Part shown: piece by piece, positions 1 through 9,527 of the stretch
Layout: the number at the start of each line of letters is the position of its first letter
Position numbering within the stretch: position 1 is the stretch's first letter
DNA from: a virus
Lineage: Duplodnaviria; Heunggongvirae; Uroviricota; Caudoviricetes
DNA length: 9,527 bases
Virus record (IMG/VR): IMGVR_UViG_2648501334_000004
Span: 1-9,527 of that record
Reading direction: 5' to 3' (one strand)
Notes under the pieces: generated by a model
What the model was told of the DNA's origin: nothing
Database searches by the model: none
The model's input: the letters and a program-made list of their open reading frames with translations, nothing else
Made by a program: the position numbers and the translations under genes

Positions 1-827
1 TCTGGGATTGCTTCCAGAGCTTCCTGTGCAATGACACCAGCATAGGGCATACCGTTTTCTTTAAGCGTGTATGTATAGCCGTTCATTTTACGGATGCGGT
101 CGGTTGCATTATCGATCACCTGAATGTTGTCTTTCAGATCCCGGTCGGAATGCTGGTTAAATGCGGTGGCATGACATGCACCATTAACGCTTAACATATA
201 GGTGTTATCGGTATTTTTCTGCGCATAGAACATATAAGCGCCACCATCAGCACCAACTTCATATACAACCGGACGGGTAGAGTTACCCCACAAACTAGTA
301 GTAGCGCCAGAATGAGCGGTTCCCTGTGTGTTGATTGTCATGGTTGACCCATGATTGGCATATTTGATTTGTAATGTGTCTGTGCAGTCAAACTTAATAA
401 GCGCGTTACTTCCCCGCACACCATACGACATGAGACAGTTCCCCATCTTAAGGTAACCATCACTGCCTGGAAAAATTAATGTTCCACCGTAAAGATCGCT
501 AAAATCCCAAAAGATACCTTTTGTTCCATTGTGTGTGACAATCCTTGTCATTGTATCTTTTGTACCGTCAATATTTTTTCTAGTGTACATCTCACTATAA
601 GCGTTTTCGGTTTCTCCTGTCTTATTTGACAAGTGAATCTTACCGCTAAATATAGTTCCAGTGGTCGGCAATGTCTTTTGATCATAGATTACATTGCAAT
701 AACTATTCCATGTTGTTTTATTGTCTACATATGATTTTGTTGCGTAGCTTCCTTGATCGTTTTTTAATTTGCTAACGTCGGATTTTAGCGTTTTGATGTC
801 TTCAGGAATTACTGTCGATGTAGCCAT
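1..827 (-). CDS. Tail fiber / tailspike-like receptor-binding protein with a C-terminal peptidase S74 (endosialidase-type intramolecular chaperone) domain; partial, C-terminus lies beyond the left window edge
   Basis: Manual translation of the minus strand from ATG at 827..825 gives 275 codons with no stop before position 1 (MATSTVIPEDIKTLKSDVSKLKND...AFNQHSDRDLKDNIQVIDNATDRIRKMNGYTYTLKENGMPYAGVIAQEALEAIP). It is absent from the ORF track because it has no in-window stop. SD-like GAGGAAG lies 5 nt upstream of the ATG and overlaps the upstream TGA. From residue ~227 there is an S-D-x-x-x-K ... NI ... G-Y-x-Y ... G-V-I-A-Q-E pattern matching the catalytic Ser/Lys spacing and downstream consensus of S74 auto-cleaving chaperone domains (recalled, not searched). 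AT-rich composition. Confidence 0.7.
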   Translation of the reverse strand, partial: MATSTVIPEDIKTLKSDVSKLKNDQGSYATKSYVDNKTTWNSYCNVIYDQKTLPTTGTIFSGKIHLSNKTGETENAYSEMYTRKNIDGTKDTMTRIVTHNGTKGIFWDFSDLYGGTLIFPGSDGYLKMGNCLMSYGVRGSNALIKFDCTDTLQIKYANHGSTMTINTQGTAHSGATTSLWGNSTRPVVYEVGADGGAYMFYAQKNTDNTYMLSVNGACHATAFNQHSDRDLKDNIQVIDNATDRIRKMNGYTYTLKENGMPYAGVIAQEALEAIP

Positions 828-836
828 TTTTCTTCC

Positions 837-1118
837 TCACATCCAGCCACGAAGTTGATGCTCAACAGCAACCACGTATTCATCGAATAATGACGATATT
901 TGCGAATCATTAATGATGCGCACATTTACAAAATATCCGTCCTCCTTAACACATACCGGCTCGCCATCTTCAGTAAGTTCTCCGGTTTCTTTGTACACAT
1001 TACCTATCACGTCAATAAGAATATCATCCTGCATCGACTCGTCATCATAATAGCCAATGCTCTCCATAAAGGCCGAAAAGTCGGCCCTGTCTGCAAATTT
1101 GAGTGTTAAATCTTTCAT
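837..1118 (-). CDS. Hypothetical small acidic protein (93 aa); possible tail-fiber accessory, adaptor or chaperone
   Basis: ORF with ATG at 1118..1116 immediately abutting the stf stop (TAA at 1121..1119), and a stop (TGA 839..837) 9 nt before the next ATG. Co-oriented with the flanking fiber genes. Strongly acidic (about 21 D/E versus 7 K/R by count). No resemblance I can recognise to lambda Tfa. Confidence 0.6.
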   Translation of the reverse strand: MKDLTLKFADRADFSAFMESIGYYDDESMQDDILIDVIGNVYKETGELTEDGEPVCVKEDGYFVNVRIINDSQISSLFDEYVVAVEHQLRGWM

Positions 1119-3308
1119 TTAATACTCACCAATGAATTTTCGAACATCAGTTCGACCAGCAAACACACTAGAAACGTAAGTACTTGTCGACGCTTTATAA
1201 GTTTGCATATAAAGCTGACCGTAATATTTCTCAGTTGTGTTAAAAGCGTATGTAATTGACTCAATAGGTGGCACACCAGAAAAATCAAAAATACGCGGTG
1301 CTACATTAGGAGGAATATCGCCCCAATTTCTATTAACCTCGACAAGACACGTAAGCGGTCTATTATAGATATTATTTTCAGTTGGGATCGTCACCATATC
1401 ACTGGAGCGGGTTGCGGGTGCAGTTGTCGTAATAACAAAAGATGAAGCACATCCGCCGTTTTCAAATTGTGGTGTTGCAAGGTAAATATAATCTCCCGCT
1501 TCAGTTATACCACCTTTTTTCGGCGCATACTGAATCATTGCGCCAATTAAGGTTTCACCTTCAACAGCTTCTATAGTTGCCTCATAGAAAATCCACCCTG
1601 TAACCGGATCTTTAGTTGCAGTAGCTGCTATTCTATTGGCTGCTCCGCCAGTTTTTTCTATTATCAGAGTTCCGAAAGTTAAATAAGCATCTCCTAAAAA
1701 TGTATAAACCGACCCATCGTATTTTTCAAAACGCAAACGACAACGAAGACCATCAGGAGCTTTAACCCTGCATGAAACAGTGCAATACTTATTATCGCCA
1801 CTAACATCAATCCCCCGGGATGCACTGCATGTATGCAGACTAAGTGCAGATGATTGTCCTGTCATATTATCTTTTGTTCGCATTTTGGCATATGAAAAAC
1901 CAAATTCATCAACACCATTATTAGTTTTATCGATATTGCTGGTACTCGTCCATTCAGCGGGAGTATTGGATTTAACAAAATAGTTAGTGCGCTGTCCTTC
2001 AATCAATAAACCTTCTTTTTCAAATCGTGGCTCATCAATTTTAGCAACACTAAATACGCCTGATTTATTGATATATGTGGCAGTTGATGCGCGTTTAAAC
2101 TTAACAACCTTGTCGCCAGGCATCGTTATTTCATCATCACCAATAACAATTTTTTTATATGACGGCGAAAAGCCCGTAATCATATCCAGTGAATCATTAA
2201 ACGGTATCCACACATCAGGCAGTGGCTGTAAGACATATTTATACGGCTCTGCTGCCTGACTTGCATACTCTCTGGCTGCGTCTTCACTTGCTTTAGCTGC
2301 TGTCTGGCTTGCTGCCGATGCTTTCGCCGAGTTCGCCGCTGCAGTCTCGCTTGTCTTTGCATTGGTTTCACTGGTTTTTGCTGCTTTTTGACTGTTGGCT
2401 GATGCAGTGGCAGAAGCAGCCGCCGCGCTTGCAGAACCAGCTGCAGCACTCTCGCTTTGGGCTGCTGCATCCTGACTGTTTTTCGCCGCAGTTTCGCTGG
2501 CTTTGGCATTCGTTTCGCTGGTCTTCGCTGCCGTCTGGCTGGACTTTGCGTTAGTTTCACTCGTCTTCGCAGCTTTCTGGCTGTTAGCCGCAGCAGTTGC
2601 TGATCCAGCTGCTGAAGTCGCAGAACCGGCTGCCGCGCTCTCGCTTTGGGCTGCTGCAACCTGGCTGTTTTTTGCCGCAGTTTCACTGGCTTTGGCATTC
2701 GTTTCGCTGGTTTTCGCTGCCGTCTGGCTGGACTTTGCGTTGGTTTCGCTCGTCTTTGCGGCTGTCTCGCTATTTTTCGCGTTGGTTTCTGATTTTTTGG
2801 CTGCTGTCGCGGAGTTTGCCGATGCAGTCTTTGAGGTCGCTGCCGCCTGTGCACTATTAGCTGCATTCGTTTCTGAGGTTTTCGCCGCGTTCTTCGATGA
2901 TGCCGCTGCAGTTTCGGATTTCTTTGCCGCCGCTGCGCTCTGAGAGGCGGCTTCAGCGTTGCGTGCCGCTTCTTCCACCATTTCCTCAAAACGACGCAAT
3001 GCCTCCGGCATGACATCATCTTCCGTCATGGCACCGAGAAAATCATTCAGCGTCCCCGGCTTAGAATCTTCATACACGGTGATGGTCCCGGCATGTGAAG
3101 GCGGAAAACCTTCAACCAGCAGGGTGACGCTGTACTGGCCATACTCAACATCCATGCTGTAACGTCCGGCTTCATCCGGATTTTCAGAAGCCACCGTGTT
3201 CACCAGTACCGTGGTGCTGTTACGCTTTGCCTTCAGTTGAATAGTGCAGTTCTGTATTGGTTTTCCCGCACCATCTTTCAGCACACCTGAGATTTTTACT
3301 GCTGCCAT
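1119..3308 (-). CDS. stf: Side tail fiber protein Stf: conserved lambda-like N-terminal region, Ala/Ser/Thr-rich repeat shaft, and a divergent low-GC distal domain
   Basis: N-terminus MAAVKISGVLKDG...GRYSMDVEYGQYSV...FPPSHAGTITVYED matches the lambdoid Stf N-terminal family (recalled). The track start at 3314 is a GTG; the ATG at 3308..3306 has GGAG 5 nt upstream and is taken as the start. Position directly downstream of lom as in lambda. Stop TAA at 1121..1119. Confidence 0.9.
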   Translation of the reverse strand: MAAVKISGVLKDGAGKPIQNCTIQLKAKRNSTTVLVNTVASENPDEAGRYSMDVEYGQYSVTLLVEGFPPSHAGTITVYEDSKPGTLNDFLGAMTEDDVMPEALRRFEEMVEEAARNAEAASQSAAAAKKSETAAASSKNAAKTSETNAANSAQAAATSKTASANSATAAKKSETNAKNSETAAKTSETNAKSSQTAAKTSETNAKASETAAKNSQVAAAQSESAAAGSATSAAGSATAAANSQKAAKTSETNAKSSQTAAKTSETNAKASETAAKNSQDAAAQSESAAAGSASAAAASATASANSQKAAKTSETNAKTSETAAANSAKASAASQTAAKASEDAAREYASQAAEPYKYVLQPLPDVWIPFNDSLDMITGFSPSYKKIVIGDDEITMPGDKVVKFKRASTATYINKSGVFSVAKIDEPRFEKEGLLIEGQRTNYFVKSNTPAEWTSTSNIDKTNNGVDEFGFSYAKMRTKDNMTGQSSALSLHTCSASRGIDVSGDNKYCTVSCRVKAPDGLRCRLRFEKYDGSVYTFLGDAYLTFGTLIIEKTGGAANRIAATATKDPVTGWIFYEATIEAVEGETLIGAMIQYAPKKGGITEAGDYIYLATPQFENGGCASSFVITTTAPATRSSDMVTIPTENNIYNRPLTCLVEVNRNWGDIPPNVAPRIFDFSGVPPIESITYAFNTTEKYYGQLYMQTYKASTSTYVSSVFAGRTDVRKFIGEY
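2265..2954 (-). repeat. In-frame coding low-complexity repeat region of stf (KTSETNAK / AAKxSETxA-type units), containing a 189-bp (63-codon) tandem duplication at roughly 2358..2770
   Basis: DNA strings recur at an offset of exactly 189 nt, e.g. ctcgctttggg at 2451 and 2640, and gctgccgtctggctggactttgcg at 2527 and 2716. At protein level, KSSQTAAKTSETNAKASETAAKNSQ(V/D)AAAQSESAAAGSA... occurs twice in tandem with a few substitutions. Confidence 0.85.
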
Positions 3309-3319
3309 ATCCACTCCAC

Positions 3320-3346
3320 AAAAAAGCCCGCCTGAACCGGCGGGCT
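3320..3346 (-). terminator. Rho-independent terminator downstream of lom (minus-strand transcript)
   Basis: Minus-strand RNA reads AGCCCGCC-GGUUCA-GGCGGGCU followed by UUUUUU: an 8-bp GC-rich stem (3326-3332 pairing with 3339-3345, plus A3325/T3346) with a 6-nt loop and a 6-U tract (complement of A3320-A3325). It lies 27 nt after the lom stop and immediately before the stf RBS. Confidence 0.75.
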
Positions 3347-3372
3347 GTCATAACACTGTGTTACCTGGCTAA

Positions 3373-3972
3373 TCAGAACTTATAACCGACACCCACGATG
3401 AAACCGTCAGTGCGCCAGTCGCCACTGCCGGAGCCTTCATAAGCAATATCAATGGCCACGGATTCGGTCGGGTTAAACTGCACGCCAGCTCCCCACGCCA
3501 GAGACGTGTTGCTGTGGCGATCGTCATCACTTCCGGTCAGCACATCGTGCGTTTTCCCCTTGTTGTCAGTTACGCGGAGATAATCCCCGGAGAACGTCGA
3601 AACACGGCTGTAAGCCACACCTGCCATCGCATAAGCACTGAACCATTCATTCACGCGTACAGATGGCCCCGCCATCATGCTGAACCAGCGGTTACGCACT
3701 GAATCTTCATGCCAGCGGGTATCGCTGTAATGCGTTCTTTGCTCATCTTTGGCATTGGCATAACTGAATGACGTCACCAGCCCCAGCGTGTCCGTAAATT
3801 CATAACGGTATTTCACGTTAATGCCCTTCAGGTCATCACTGCCTGGCATATCAGTATGGGTCTGAAGATACCCGGCGCTTAGTGTGGACTGATGCTCTGC
3901 TGCGCTCGCTGGCGTACCAGCGGCAACCAGCCAGACTACTGCGGACAGAATAACAGCACATAATTTACGCAT
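3373..3972 (-). CDS. lom: Lom outer-membrane protein (Ail/Lom/PagC family beta-barrel), a lysogenic-conversion moron
   Basis: 199-aa ORF with a signal-peptide-like N-terminus (MRKLCAVILSAVVWLVAAGTPASA) and a C-terminal aromatic residue (…GVGYKF) typical of outer-membrane beta-barrels. Sequence closely resembles lambda Lom (recalled). Sits between J and stf as in lambda. ATG at 3972 with GAGAGG 6 nt upstream. Confidence 0.9.
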   Translation of the reverse strand: MRKLCAVILSAVVWLVAAGTPASAAEHQSTLSAGYLQTHTDMPGSDDLKGINVKYRYEFTDTLGLVTSFSYANAKDEQRTHYSDTRWHEDSVRNRWFSMMAGPSVRVNEWFSAYAMAGVAYSRVSTFSGDYLRVTDNKGKTHDVLTGSDDDRHSNTSLAWGAGVQFNPTESVAIDIAYEGSGSGDWRTDGFIVGVGYKF

Positions 3973-3995
3973 AATTACCTCTCGCTTTTCTGCAA

Positions 3996-4020
3996 TAAAA
4001 AAGGCACCATTTCTGGTGCC
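3996..4020 (-). terminator. Rho-independent terminator downstream of J (tJ-like)
   Basis: Minus-strand RNA reads GGCACCA-GAAA-UGGUGCC followed by UUUUUUAUU: a 7-bp stem (4003-4009 pairing with 4014-4020) with a 4-nt loop and a U tract. It lies 19 nt after the J stop and about 23 nt before the lom ATG. Confidence 0.7.
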
Positions 4021-4039
4021 CGTATCTGGGTTATAAAAT

Positions 4040-7000
4040 TCAGCTAATCGTGATGCCTGCAGTGGCTTTCTTCATCACAACAACCAGCAAATCGCTGATA
4101 CTTGCTGTGGGATACCAGCCATTTACCAGCCATGCTGACACCGAAAACTCCAGTGTCATGTGACCGTGACCGGCAGGCATATCAATAACGCCACTGTAAA
4201 TCAGCGTATTATCCAGCGCGGTACGGTTATAAATTTCAGCACCGTTTTTCCGCACTATCAGACGGCATGAGGAGTAAATATCAGTATGCTCTCTCTCATG
4301 CTTAGCGCCACTGAATGCCACCGCCGGAATAACAATTTGCCGGTCAAACGGCTGATCGTCATAAACCCTGACGGTAATGGTCCCTGATGGCCACCGCTCC
4401 GGTGCTCGGGAGTCACGGGGGAAAGCTTTGCCCACTGTTTTAACGAGATCGCCTTCAATCTGGTTCGCGGACAGTTTTCCCAGAACCCGGCAGTTCTCGT
4501 TAATCGTGACGTTGTTGAGCGTCCCGGAGTTCGCATTCACGTTACCGCTGATATCGGCATTTTTCGCCGTCAGCCGCCCGTCCGGTGTCAGGGAAAATGC
4601 CGGAGGATTACCGCCGCTGGTAATGGTGGGAGCCGTCAGATATTTCAGGAACACTTCGTTCATGAATATCTGATTGCCCTGCGCCACAAACATCGGCGTT
4701 TCATTCCCGTTTGCCGGGTCAATAAATGCGATACGGTTAGCGGCAACCAGGAACTGGCTCAGTTTGCCTTCCTCCGTGTCCTCCATGCTGAGGCCAAGCC
4801 CCGCGACATAATGTTTGCCGTCTTTGGTCTGCTCAATTTTGACAGCCCACATGGCATTCCACTTATCGTTGGCGTCCTTCCACTCTTTCGAAAACTCCTC
4901 CAGTCTGCTGGCGTTATCCTCCGTCAGCTCGACTTTTTCCAGCAGCTCCTTGCCGAGATGGGATTCGGTTATCTTGCCTTTGAAAAAATCCAGGTAACCT
5001 TCCGCATCATCGCTCGCCCGACCGACAGCCTCCACGAATATCGATTTGCCGACGGTGTTCACACTGCGAACGTAAAAATAATAATCATGGCCCGGTTTGA
5101 TATTGATACTGGCGGCTATCCAGTACAGCGCCGTGCCAAGATAACGCGCGCTGGTTTCAACCTGCCTGATATCCGCAATCCGATTTTCCGAGAACCAGAA
5201 CTCAAACTGTACCGTCGGATCATAAACCGCAAGATGCGGCGTGGCAGTTATCTGAAAATAGCCCGGCGTCAGCTCAATCCGCGATGGCGCTGCCGGTGCG
5301 GCAATCCGGAACGATACCGACGCCGGATCGCCCTGCTGCCCCCACGCATTTACCGCCCGGACTGTCAGACTGTAATTTCCCAGAGCCAGCTGCCTGAAGC
5401 GGTATGTGGTTTCCGTCGTCCGGGCCGTGCTGACCAGCCGCTCACTGCCGTCATCCGCTGCCACGGTCAGGCGAAGCATAAAGCTCACGCCCTTCACCAC
5501 CTTCGGCGTATCCCAGCGCGCCAGCACCTGGTATTCCCCGCTGTCTGCGGTGACTTCGGCGGTCAGGTGCTGCACCGCTGGCGGCGTGACACCATTCACC
5601 GTGCCGCTCTGGTCGCCGTCAAAGTGCGCCCCGTTATCCACGATGGCTTCTTTTTCCGGTACATGCTGCACGGCAGTGATGGCATACGTGCCGTCATCGT
5701 TCTCACGGATACTCACACAGCGGAACAGGCGCTGGCGCAGCGTCGGCAGCTTCAGCCCCCACACGCTGTATTCGGCAACGCCGTCAGGAACCCGACTCAC
5801 TTTCACCTTCACGCCGTCGGTGACGGACTGAACCTCCACGCTGACCGGACTCCCCTGCCCGTCAACCAGGCTTATCAGCGTGGTACCGGAGGATGGCAGC
5901 GTGATTTCACGGTCGAGCGTCAGCGTCCGGGTCTGGCTGTTCACCGCCAGCACGCGCCCGCCAATGCTGATCCCCGCATAGTCATCATCGCAGATTTCAA
6001 TAACATCACCCGGTACATGGCGAAGCCCTTCTGCGCCGACGCTGAAATCCACGGTCTGCGTTTCCAGCAGTTCTGTTTTAATCAGCCACAGCCCGGCGCG
6101 GTGTGCCTGCCCCCGGCTGGTACAGCCAAAGGCATCCATCTTCGTGACGTTACGACCGTAACGGGCAATGGCCTGCGTGTCCTCCACAAGCTCTGTCGCC
6201 GTCTCCCAGCCGTTATTCGGGTCAATCCAGTTCACCTCAACGGCATTATGACGGTCCTTCAGGGCGCTGAAGCTGTAGCGGAACGGCGCGCCATCATCCG
6301 GCATCGCCACATTACTGCGGTTATAGGTCCACACCTTATCCGATGGCCGGTCCTGCACGAACGTCAGCGTCTGCCCGTTCCATACCGGCATACAGCGCAT
6401 CGCCGAGCAGAAATCACTGAGCACATCCCACGCCTTGCGCTGCGTGGTCAGCCAGGCATTACAGGTGATGCGCGGCTCCGTGCCACCAAAGCCATCCGGC
6501 ACCGACTGGTCGCAATTCTGGCCGATGACATACAGCGCCCATTTGTCCACATCCGCCGCACCGAGACGCTTCCCCATGCCGTAGCGCGGATGGGTCAGCA
6601 TATCCCACAGACACCAGGCCATGTTGTTGCTGTATGCCGGTTTAAACGTTCCGTCCCAGATACCGCTGTATTGCCGCGTCTGCGGGTTATAGTTCGACGG
6701 CACCTGCAGAATGCGCCCGCGAAGATGATAATTACGGCTCACCTGCTGGCTGCCGAACTGCTCCGAATCCACCTGTACGCCGACCAGTGCCGTGTTCGGG
6801 TAGCCCTGTTTCACATCGATGATTTCGGTGTATGACGACCAGAGCGTTTTGTTCTGCAGCTGGTCTGTGGTGCTGTCCGGCGTCATCCTGCGCATCCGGA
6901 TATTAAACGGGCGCGGCGGCAGGTTATCCACCACCACCGAGGCCAGATACTGCGAGGTGGTTTTGCCCTTAATGGTGATGTCTTTTTCTGTCACCCAGCC

Positions 7001-7435
7001 ACCGTTACGCTGTATCTGAACCAGCAGGCGGACTTCCGATGGATTCCTGTCCCCCTTTGAGGTGGTTTCCACCAGTGCCTGCACACCGAAGGTAAAGCGC
7101 AGACGGTCGATGTTTGCCGACGTGATGGTCCGGGTGATCGGCGTGTCATATTTCACTTCCGTACCCAGCACCGTCTCGGAACCGGAGGATTCAAATCCCT
7201 CCGGCGGTGTCTGCTCCTGCTCACCTGCCCGGAACACCACCGTGACACCGGAGATGTTGGTATTCCCCTCACTGTCCAGCACCGGTGTACTGTTCAGCAG
7301 CACGCTTTTTAATCCATCCACCGGACCTTCAATCGGCCCTTCGCTGATGGCATCGATCACACTCAGTAACTGCGTGGATTTCAGGTTATCCTTCGCTTCG
7401 CGCGGGGTATGCCCCTTACTGCTGCCTTTACCCAT
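4040..7435 (-). CDS. J: Tail tip attachment / host specificity protein J (central tail fiber)
   Basis: 1131-aa ORF; N-terminus [44 protein letters not shown] and most of the body match lambda gpJ (about 1132 aa, recalled). ATG at 7435 with GGAG 8 nt upstream. The last ~150 aa look divergent from lambda J as I recall it. Confidence 0.95.
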
Positions 7436-7457
7436 TCGTCATGCTCCATAAACGACA

Positions 7458-7477
7458 AAACCGCCCGGAGGCGGTTT
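7458..7477 (-). other. Stem-loop in the I-J intergenic region (possible weak attenuator or translational-control hairpin)
   Basis: AAACCGCC / GGCGGTTT inverted repeat (8 bp) with a 4-nt loop. On the minus-strand RNA it is followed by UGUCGUUUAU, which is not a clean U tract, and lies about 20 nt upstream of the J ATG. Confidence 0.3.
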
Positions 7478-7495
7478 CACATAAAACATTTTGCA

Positions 7496-8167
7496 TCAGC
7501 GACCAATCACCACAACCTGACCACCGTCCCCTTCGTCTGCCGTGCTGATCTCCTGAGAAACCACCCGCGACCCCACACGCATTTCACCGTACAGAACAGG
7601 CAGAACATTGCCCTGAGCAACCATGTTATCCAGTGAGGAAAAATAGGTGTTCTGTTTGCCGTTATCCGTTGTCTGTGTACGGGGAGTTCTGGCTTTCGGT
7701 GCCAGCATCTGCGCCACACCACCGAGCACCATACTGGCACCGAGAGAAAACAGGATGCCGGTCATACCACCGGCCCCAATGGCTGCCCCCCATGCTGCAA
7801 GGGTGGCTCCGGCAGTAAAGAATGATCCGGCAATGGCGGCAGCTCCCAGGACAATCTGGAATACACCACCTGACTTGGCCCCGGCGACTCTGGGAACAAT
7901 ATGAATCACAGCGCCATCAGGCAGAGTCTCATGTAACTGCGCCGTTAATCCGGACGTGCTGACATCCCGCCCGGCAATCCGTACCTGATACCAGCCGCCG
8001 CTCAGTTTCTGACGAAACGCCGGGAGCTGTGTGGCCAGTGCGCGGATGGCTTCAGCCCCCGTTTTCACACGAAGGTCGATGCGGCGGCCAAATCGTTGCA
8101 AATCCCCGTAAAGGCAGATGCGTGCCATTCCCGGTGACGCCAGAGGGAGTGTGTGCGTCGCTGCCAT
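7496..8167 (-). CDS. I: Tail assembly protein I
   Basis: 223-aa ORF with ATG at 8167; sequence MAATHTLPLASPGMARICLYGDLQRFGRRIDLRVKTGAEAIRALATQLP... matches lambda gpI (223 aa, recalled). Gly/Ala-rich hydrophobic segment in the C-terminal half. Starts inside the 3' end of K in another frame. Confidence 0.9.
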   Translation of the reverse strand: MAATHTLPLASPGMARICLYGDLQRFGRRIDLRVKTGAEAIRALATQLPAFRQKLSGGWYQVRIAGRDVSTSGLTAQLHETLPDGAVIHIVPRVAGAKSGGVFQIVLGAAAIAGSFFTAGATLAAWGAAIGAGGMTGILFSLGASMVLGGVAQMLAPKARTPRTQTTDNGKQNTYFSSLDNMVAQGNVLPVLYGEMRVGSRVVSQEISTADEGDGGQVVVIGR

Positions 8168-8808
8168 TTGTCGGTATACCTCTCTCGTTTACTCAGTTGT
8201 TCAGGAATATGGTGCAGCAGCTCGCCATCACCACAGTAAATGGCGGCATGATTCGGCACCGATGAACCAAAGCAGCACAGCAGCACGTCGCCAGGCTGCG
8301 CCTCTGTCAGTGCGACACGGTAAAAACCAGTCGCCTCCATATTGTCAAGATAGAGATTCTGACCGTTACGCCACCAGTCATCCCCGCGATGAAAATCCGG
8401 CATCTCAATCCCCGCCAGATGATAAGCATCCCGGAACAGCGTGTAACAGTCCGTCACCCCGTGCTCAAAGCGACGCCCGGTGAGATGCGGCACACAGCGG
8501 AACTTGTGAATCGCCCCCCGGCAGACCAGCCACCACGGCAAATCACTCTGCACCTGCAGCCGCCGGTCAGCCTCACTCAGCCAGGGCAGACCACCGGGAT
8601 GACTGTGGACCAGTGCCACAATCTCACCCTGCATCTCTGCCTGCAGCCAGTCCTCCGGAGCCATCCGGAAATAATCCTCCGGCTCACCGGAAATATTCAC
8701 GCAGGGGAAATATCTTTCCCCCTCCGGCGCTCTCACCACGAAGCCGCACGACTCCGCTGGCGCACATCGCCGGGCGTGCGCCAGAATCGCTGATTCTGTC
8801 TCTGTCAT
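8065..8808 (-). CDS. K: Tail tip assembly protein K (N-terminal MPN/JAMM-type domain plus C-terminal NlpC/P60-like Cys/His domain), 247-aa long form
   Basis: The ORF-track start at 8850 is TTG; the first ATG (8808..8806) gives MTETESAILAHARRCAPAESCGFV.... JAMM signature E...H-S-H-x7-S-x2-D is present (APAESCGF; ALVHSHPGGLPWLSEAD). Candidate NlpC/P60 catalytic Cys/His (GVTDCYTLF; VPNHAAIY). ATG is 4 nt after the L stop. The 103-nt overlap with I matches lambda K/I as I recall it. Confidence 0.85.
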   Translation of the reverse strand: MTETESAILAHARRCAPAESCGFVVRAPEGERYFPCVNISGEPEDYFRMAPEDWLQAEMQGEIVALVHSHPGGLPWLSEADRRLQVQSDLPWWLVCRGAIHKFRCVPHLTGRRFEHGVTDCYTLFRDAYHLAGIEMPDFHRGDDWWRNGQNLYLDNMEATGFYRVALTEAQPGDVLLCCFGSSVPNHAAIYCGDGELLHHIPEQLSKRERYTDKWQRRTHSLWRHREWHASAFTGICNDLAAASTFV

Positions 8809-8812
8809 GGGA

Positions 8813-9511
8813 TTACTGCGAAAGTTTGTTAATGGAAAGGAAGCCGCCAAAGTTGCCGACGTTATTGCGAAACTTACAGCCGCTCAGGCATTTGCTGCAT
8901 TTATCCTTCGTGATATCGGACGTCGGCTGGTCATATTCATCCGCGACCGCCGGACCGCTATAACCGCACTCATCGCCGCGATAGGTCCAGGTGCAGGTGT
9001 TGGCCAGCATGATACGCCCCGGAAAAACAGAGCCATCCGTTTCAGTCGGTGTGGACAGTACAAAAGAGGCACTCACCGCGCTCAGTTCGCTGCACTGCTC
9101 AATGCGCCAGCGGCTGATCACCTCCTGCTCCGGATCGGCGCCACTGTTTCCGTTGACGAAGTTCACCGCATCCAGAAAACGGGCGTAAACCTTACGCCGG
9201 ACCACCGTTCCACCGACCAGACTCTGCAGATCTTCCGCCATCCCGGTGACCATACCGTACAGGTTAGAAACCGTCAGTGTGGGGCGCGTACTGGTGCCTT
9301 TGCCATTCAGTTCAAAACCACTCCCCTGAATGGGATACGGCTGATACTGTCGCCCCTGCCAGGTGACCGGCTCACCTTTTTCGTTCTGCTCATTACAGAA
9401 AAAATAACGTTCTCCACCGACCTCTGTCAGGTCGATTTCCCAGAGCACCACGCTGGCCGACTGCTCCGCACGGGTGCATTCATTCAGTGTTTCCTGCCGG
9501 ATATCCTGCAT
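8813..9511 (-). CDS. L: Tail tip protein L
   Basis: 232-aa ORF with ATG at 9511; matches lambda gpL in length (232 aa, recalled) and sequence (MQDIRQETLNECTRAEQSASVVLWEIDLTEVGGERYFFCNEQ...). C-terminal cysteine cluster (C..C...C..C...C). The start overlaps the stop of the upstream partial ORF by 1 nt (TGATG). Confidence 0.9.
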   Translation of the reverse strand: MQDIRQETLNECTRAEQSASVVLWEIDLTEVGGERYFFCNEQNEKGEPVTWQGRQYQPYPIQGSGFELNGKGTSTRPTLTVSNLYGMVTGMAEDLQSLVGGTVVRRKVYARFLDAVNFVNGNSGADPEQEVISRWRIEQCSELSAVSASFVLSTPTETDGSVFPGRIMLANTCTWTYRGDECGYSGPAVADEYDQPTSDITKDKCSKCLSGCKFRNNVGNFGGFLSINKLSQ

Positions 9512-9527
9512 CAGTTCACCACCTGTT
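9511..9527 (-). CDS. M: Tail assembly protein M, extreme C-terminus only (partial; N-terminus beyond the right window edge)
   Basis: Minus-strand reading CAG GTG GTG AAC TGA encodes ...QVVN*, with the TGA sharing its A with the L ATG. This matches the 1-nt M/L overlap and the ...QVVN C-terminus I recall for lambda gpM. Only 5 codons are visible. Confidence 0.5.

Follow-up and report, generated by a model that had tools for sequence, protein, structure and literature searches.

The window, by which we mean the whole 9,527-nt stretch of DNA analysed (positions 1 to 9,527 of the virus record IMGVR_UViG_2648501334_000004), carries a set of phage tail genes on its minus strand. Pfam identified these, in order, as Phage_tail_L, JAB plus NlpC/P60 (K), Lambda_tail_I, J, Ail_Lom, and phage_tail_N; this order (L, K, I, J, lom, stf) is that of lambda, and L, K, and I, which flank J, are intact. 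By nucleotide comparison the window is identical to no sequenced phage or complete E. coli genome, and its best matches cover 79% of it at 96.9% identity (phage 2G7b) and 88-91% of it at 96-97% (E. coli chromosomes). The features in and around J are as follows:

4040..7435, minus strand: gene J (tip attachment protein, or central tail fibre), intact, 1131 aa; from the ORF list and translation, Pfam, and comparison with lambda gpJ
4502..7435, minus strand: lambda-like J body, residues 1-978, with hub, FNIII/Ig domains, helical shaft, and beta-prism fibre; from the lambda comparison, with domain names from Pfam and PMC11101478
4441..4655, minus strand: mosaic junction zone, J residues ~928-998, closest in turn to lambda, phage 21, and YYZ-2008; from per-30-nt identity against five J alleles
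4043..4435, minus strand: Ig-like receptor-binding domain, residues 1001-1131, a non-lambda allele of the 2G7b / VT1-Sakai type; from Pfam, DNA identity, and an AlphaFold2 (AF2) model
3455..4500, minus strand: whole DNA block diverged from lambda (~50-60% identity; ~1.05 kb), covering the J receptor-binding end, the spacer, and most of lom; from per-30-nt alignment to lambda 18205-19699
4002..4021, minus strand: terminator-like hairpin directly 3' of the J stop codon; from a pattern scan
3373..3972, minus strand: lom (Ail/Lom outer-membrane protein), 199 aa, a non-lambda allele; from Pfam (Ail_Lom, E 6e-127)

The J reading frame is the sole long ORF over positions 4040-4500, which hold its last 153 codons and the stop, and it is open across all 1131 codons. 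Its product is 89% identical overall to lambda gpJ (NC_001416 15505-18903) by BLASTP and carries six gpJ Pfam models in the expected order, all over their curated cut-offs (FNIII-A_GpJ, Phage-tail_3, Ig_J, Ig_J_second, Phage_Tail_Tip, and Ig_GpJ_C). By both domain set and gene position, J is a lambda-type tip attachment protein.

The resemblance to lambda is unevenly distributed along the protein. Over residues 1-978, 948 of the 978 positions are identical (96.9%; 94.8% for J nt 1-2934). Counted per 50 residues, identity is 45-50 of 50 up to residue 950, then 36, 24, and 20 of 50, and finally 9 of 32; from NENC (residue 979) to the C-terminus, the aligned proteins are 41.8% identical and the DNA ~55%. 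The motifs FDRQIV, (I/V)DMPAG, and WPSGT, common to lambda, are kept in this stretch. A sequence-only reading of this DNA had claimed that the first ~980 residues of J track the lambda protein and that the last ~150 diverge from it, keeping scattered motifs such as FDRQIV and VDMPAG. Both claims were borne out, the C-terminal peptide that it quoted is found in J, and the pairwise check against lambda J that it proposed returned the low value just given, not an identity of >90%, over the last ~150 residues.

The diverged part was then identified from family and fold. J residues 1001-1131 align with the whole PF12421 (Ig_GpJ_C) profile, positions 1-135, at E 6e-37, scoring 127 bits where the cut-off is 26.2. 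In the PDB, the best sequence match was A8 gpJ (9wca/9wcb, E 4e-94), and lambda gpJ came second (8xcj/8xck and 8iyk, ~E 1e-73). An AF2 monomer model covering J residues 972-1131 is all-beta, with a mean pLDDT of 78.8 and a pTM of 0.73 (pLDDT is <50 for model residues 1-24). Foldseek with this model matched 9wcb and 9wca (A8 with OmpC and A8 closed, respectively; 61% identity, TMq 0.76-0.78), as well as 8xck and 8xcj (the lambda fibre closed and with LamB, respectively; 43% identity, TMq 0.78-0.80), with E-values of 2e-17 to 1e-14 for these four gpJ entries and far weaker values for the remaining matches. The J end is a member of this family with an Ig-like fold, and the Pfam and fold matches to solved gpJ domains thus identify the divergent piece as the Ig-like receptor-binding domain of the central tail fibre, in another allele, in agreement with the earlier claim that what had diverged was the receptor-binding end. 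From 8XCJ and 9WCB, and from PMC11101478, we infer that J would trimerise, its C-terminal domains attaching to an outer-membrane protein and thereby causing the tail to open.

The same J end recurs in a number of phages and prophages. Over its last 561 nt, J matches phage 2G7b at 100% and, at 97.7%, VT1-Sakai, O157 PPompW prophages, a number of Stx2a phages, and temperate phages that were induced from ECOR strains. At the protein level the allele is 98-98.7% identical to PPompW, the Stx2a JNE phages, JLK-2012, and PhiR5_1, and it is found at 96-98% identity in many Stx and O157 prophages. On these identities the J end can be placed in the 2G7b / VT1-Sakai class, whose members are at least 90% identical in the receptor-binding domain. 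When the last 153 residues served as a tblastn query, the allele's own class was recovered at no less than 91% identity (57 records), followed by phage 21 (63%), Stx1a / YYZ-2008 (59-61%), lambda (42%), and 434 (~41%).

To estimate prevalence, the last 461 nt of each allele were searched for in 5426 complete E. coli genomes, and a match was counted if it covered at least 80% of the query. The window's allele class was present in 3350 of these genomes (62%), with a median of two copies per genome; the A8 / YYZ-2008 class was present in 2413, with many of its matches at only 60-80% identity, and the 434 class in 2091. Lambda's own allele was found in 96 of the 5426 (<2%); all 98 matching genomes were at least 99% identical, and the five among the matches listed are laboratory strains. 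The rarity of this J end that the sequence-only reading had implied is thus contradicted. Many of the allele's database copies (among them P0018, P0020, P0035, P0049, P0084) are fragments, frameshifted or fused, so some of its high prevalence comes from prophages in decay and not from active use.

We compared the window's J with those of known systems. Phage 2G7b (NC_049954 / LR595866, Nesevirus) shares an identical J end and an identical stretch over the first 225 nt of lom (both 100%), as well as the order L-K-I-J-lom-stf, but is 96.9% identical over window positions 2019-9527 and differs in the distal stf region. Already in 2020 its J was described as matching lambda at >97% across 982 residues and at 40-60% across the final ~150 (bioRxiv 10.1101/2020.06.25.171868). 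Within the receptor-binding domain, the window allele is 67% identical to phage 21, 64% to Stx1_14040, 62-63% to A8 and YYZ-2008, 44% to the 434 type, and 42% to lambda. The lambda domain seen on LamB (8XCJ, 8XCK) has in common with it the Pfam family, the Ig-like fold, the position at the tip of a nearly identical body, and the lengths of loops L1-L3, but differs in sequence in all four predicted loops, and its critical residues 1012 and 1107 are replaced in the window (S1012 to P). The A8 chimera on OmpC (9WCA, 9WCB; the sequence used here was that of 9wca) is the closest solved structure, with a nearly identical last beta-strand (20 residues), but it has a shorter L1 and a 7-residue L2 insertion that is absent from the window allele. 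YYZ-2008 is the natural counterpart of A8 (98.7% identical in the domain). Given the identity to both and the other loop indels, the window J end is not the A8 / YYZ-2008 OmpC-binding allele. Phage 21 J is the closest characterised allele, sharing the scaffold and identical DNA patches in the junction zone, but its loop set has A8's indels and no lom lies behind it. The anatomy of the window allele is mixed, with lambda-length loops (L4 one residue shorter) on a phage 21 / A8-like scaffold.

Exchange of this part of J has precedents. From an alignment of 1207 J homologues, Maddamsetti et al. 2018 (PMC6646904) named residues 960-1132 the "specificity region" and concluded that it circulates as an evolutionary module of its own, independent of the remainder of J; its lineage-defining indels lie at 1012, between 1048-1049, between 1077-1078, and at 1107. 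Set against that pattern, the window is one more instance, with variation at 1012, 1048-49, 1077-78, and 1107 and no difference in kind. Further, Brödel et al. 2024 (PMC11338833) swapped natural J ends onto lambda after residue 964, yielding the OmpC-specific chimeras A8 and 1A2. Modular exchange of the J end is thus already known (PMC6646904, bioRxiv 10.1101/2020.06.25.171868, PMC11338833), is published for this allele, and is textbook-level for lambdoid phages; grafting such ends onto lambda is accepted engineering practice.

We placed four predicted receptor loops in the domain from the alignment and the moderate-confidence monomer AF2 model, not from a complex structure. As guides we used residues 1012 and 1107 and the sites 1048-1049 and 1077-1078, which PMC6646904 gives as lineage-defining indels or host-range sites of lambda J; PMC11101478, in its available part, names the loops without residue numbers. 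The predicted loops are:

4385..4417, minus strand: L1, residues 1007-1017, of lambda length, spanning lambda's critical residue 1012; from alignment, unstructured in the AF2 model
4277..4306, minus strand: L2, residues 1044-1053, of lambda length, lacking the 7 residues inserted in phage 21 and A8; from alignment
4202..4228, minus strand: L3, residues 1070-1078, NRTALDNTL; from alignment and within-class variation
4100..4138, minus strand: L4, residues 1100-1112, one residue shorter than lambda's, spanning the equivalent of lambda 1107; from alignment

Among 15 members of the class, variation tops out in the predicted loops, with L2 the most variable (up to 7 variants per column). Core residues are invariant across the class. 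The variation is concentrated at HEREHTDIY, at a 15-residue stretch, and at AWLVNGWY, which correspond to predicted receptor loops; within L4, for instance, the class has LVNG, LVNN, WVND, RDGGAF, and SH-GDY. Over the region corresponding to window positions 4100-4306, proteins P0001-P0026 carry L2, L4, and the AGHGHM stretch in discrete versions, variously combined, on a near-invariant framework. Such discrete versions on a constant framework suggest either (i) shuffling at the level of individual loops, or (ii) selection, and variation focused on loops would fit an arms race against a polymorphic receptor.

Taken together, we regard it as very probable that the window encodes a lambda-type J body bearing on its receptor-binding end a natural allele of another lineage, gained by recombination, and that the inserted loops would bind a trimeric porin. 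The divergence, domain family, fold, mosaic junctions, and prevalence are shown by the data here; the receptor is inferred, and the binding mode is read across from the structures of lambda with LamB and A8 with OmpC. Each of three domain copies would reach with its four bottom loops into the extracellular mouth of a trimeric porin; the bottom loops would spread while the domain tops approach each other, new hydrogen bonds would twist the beta-prism and the helical shaft would flip, and the change, relayed up the fibre, would open the tail tip for DNA ejection. Binding and triggering by the lambda fibre are described in PMC11101478.

If the analogy with these complexes holds, the allele's receptor is most likely a trimeric porin. 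Its identity is not predicted by sequence distance, since phage 21, whose domain is 48% identical to lambda's, uses LamB, and A8, whose domain is 81% identical to that of phage 21, binds OmpC (PMC11338833; PDB 9wcb). A single J mutation gives phage 21 the use of OmpC, and later of OmpF (PMC11336670; bioRxiv 10.1101/2023.04.13.536812). By percentage identity, the window allele is about as far from phage 21, which uses LamB, as from A8, which uses OmpC (62-67% to both). The sequence-only reading had taken divergence to mean that a different receptor or a different LamB surface is probably used; the J end is indeed non-lambda, and the change of receptor is left unsecured by the example of phage 21. 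A literature search found no receptor assignment for the allele or for its carriers 2G7b, VT1-Sakai, PPompW, and the PhiR phages, and the SNIPE paper, the BASEL completion paper, a receptor-prediction preprint, a review of STEC phages, and a paper on infant coliphages are silent on the allele's receptor.

OmpC, possibly in an allele-specific manner, is our tentative candidate, at somewhat under an even chance. The closest solved relative, A8, binds OmpC, and both chimeras characterised after a ΔlamB screen use it (PMC11338833). OmpC is dependably produced in the gut and varies greatly, with many alleles in E. coli (74 reported; PMC11338833). Further, among the matches listed, phage records with the allele never name K-12 as host, the named hosts being E. 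coli C and ECOR13; this is a weak hint against LamB, as restriction or immunity could explain it. No one of these points is strong, and we lean only slightly to OmpC over LamB. OmpF or some other protein is an unlikely receptor.

LamB itself is a possible receptor, if a less probable one. The allele may still bind LamB by way of another loop set or another LamB surface, such that the swap would alter affinity or the range of LamB alleles recognised, but not the receptor. Consistent with this, phage 21, with its domain so far from lambda's, uses LamB (PMC11336670) and is at 67% the nearest characterised relative of the window allele; moreover, the L1-L3 loops, at 1012, 1048-49, and 1077-78, keep their lambda lengths, and WPSGT is conserved. 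LamB is, however, down-regulated in the gut (PMC11338833), an odd fit with the commonest allele in gut E. coli, and the want of a K-12 host in the listed phage records weighs weakly on the same side. We consider it improbable that the allele binds something beyond LamB, OmpC, and OmpF, or that it is a natural intermediate of the LamB-to-OmpC switch; in either event the hypervariable L2 and L4 might track the alleles of a polymorphic receptor.

With respect to origin, the DNA is informative beyond the limits of J. Identity to lambda is ~95% up to ~4526 and drops at ~4500, from 24-30 to 13-22 identical positions per 30 nt. It remains low past the J stop, across the spacer and the greater part of lom, and is back to ~90% (25-28 of 30) from 3454 to 3305, lambda-like sequence having returned in the final ~80 nt of lom. 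The sequence-only reading had correctly placed divergence over 4040-4500; at the DNA level the divergent block does not stop with J and continues to ~3455. At the other edge of the block, the junction zone is a patchwork: lambda-like (28-30 of 30) up to J nt ~2780, phage 21-like (29-30 of 30) at nt 2755-2814 and 2905-2934, and, up to residue ~998, matching phage 21 or YYZ-2008 at 24-26 of 30. An abrupt drop in identity that reaches non-coding DNA, together with mosaic junctions, argues for recombination and not for accelerated point mutation. Very probably, homologous recombination among lambdoid prophages has swapped J's receptor-binding domain for a 2G7b / VT1-Sakai-type allele, with crossover junctions in the conserved beta-prism just upstream of the domain (residues ~928-998) and the exchanged DNA extending through most of lom.

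It is very improbable that this divergence arose without recombination, from fast point mutation in a lambda lineage under positive selection. Lambda J in laboratory evolution does gain new receptor use by few substitutions, all within residues 960-1132 (PMC6646904); here, however, DNA identity steps from ~95% to ~55% and stays low across the spacer and lom, the junction zone has patches identical to other alleles, and the allele is 96-100% identical in phages whose genomes otherwise differ. We rejected a point-mutation origin on the basis of the non-lambda spacer and lom and the mosaic junction patches. We likewise rejected, as scarcely credible, the reading that the C-terminal domain is a decaying, non-functional remnant of a defective prophage: while many database copies of the allele are frameshifted fragments and complete E. 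coli genomes gave no exact match to the window, the J ORF has no frameshift or stop in 4040-7435, its end is 100% identical to that of the plaque-forming phage 2G7b (one of a set isolated on indicator strains; PMC6969025), the core residues of the class are invariant, and the neighbouring L, K, and I are intact.

Recombination as the source of the J end raises the matter of lom, which was carried along for most of its length. The window Lom is 45% identical to lambda Lom; at the DNA level, its gene is ~76% identical to the lom behind 434-type and YYZ-type J ends and ~52% identical to lambda lom, and because of these values across J-end types, lom is polymorphic in its own right among lambdoid phages. 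Joint exchange of lom and the J domain could be mere physical linkage. In the available part of PMC6646904 we found no mention of lom as included in the exchanged block. Two terminator-like hairpins with T-runs on the minus strand, at 4002-4021 (after J) and 3325-3346 (after lom), bracket lom as a separate unit; the phage 21 record has a terminator annotated at the equivalent place after J.

The side tail fibre gene stf (1119-3314, minus strand) encodes a 731-aa chimera. Residues 1-285 are 61% identical to lambda Stf and contain Ala/Ser-rich SETNAK-like repeats; the last 366 residues belong to phrog_1419 and are unrelated to lambda orf-314 or distal Stf. GC content declines across the gene from ~55-62% to ~40%. 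The sequence-only reading had both receptor-binding components, the J end and Stf, as non-lambda, and this holds, including for the distal Stf. Right behind stf, at the position of lambda's tail fibre assembly gene, lies a 93-aa ORF (837-1118, minus strand) assigned to phrog_1361 (unknown function) and with no Pfam match; 2G7b has an ORF of equal length in its place. Beyond it, a reading frame of at least 275 codons runs from 827 off the left end of the window (1-827, minus strand). Relatives are annotated there as 'tail fiber domain-containing protein', and the end of the frame (DLKDNIQVID...YAGVIAQE) presumably resembles the start of an S74-type self-cleaving chaperone domain, suggesting that it encodes a second lateral fibre.

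As a discovery, the J end has small value, since exchange of J's receptor-binding end is well established and this allele has itself been published. It is, nonetheless, the commonest natural J tip in E. coli, and we found no published receptor for it, a gap that matters for host-range prediction and for engineering lambda-based delivery particles. Lambda's LamB-binding tip is rare in the natural prophages of E. coli, which makes lambda a poor model for the receptors that lambdoid phages use in nature.
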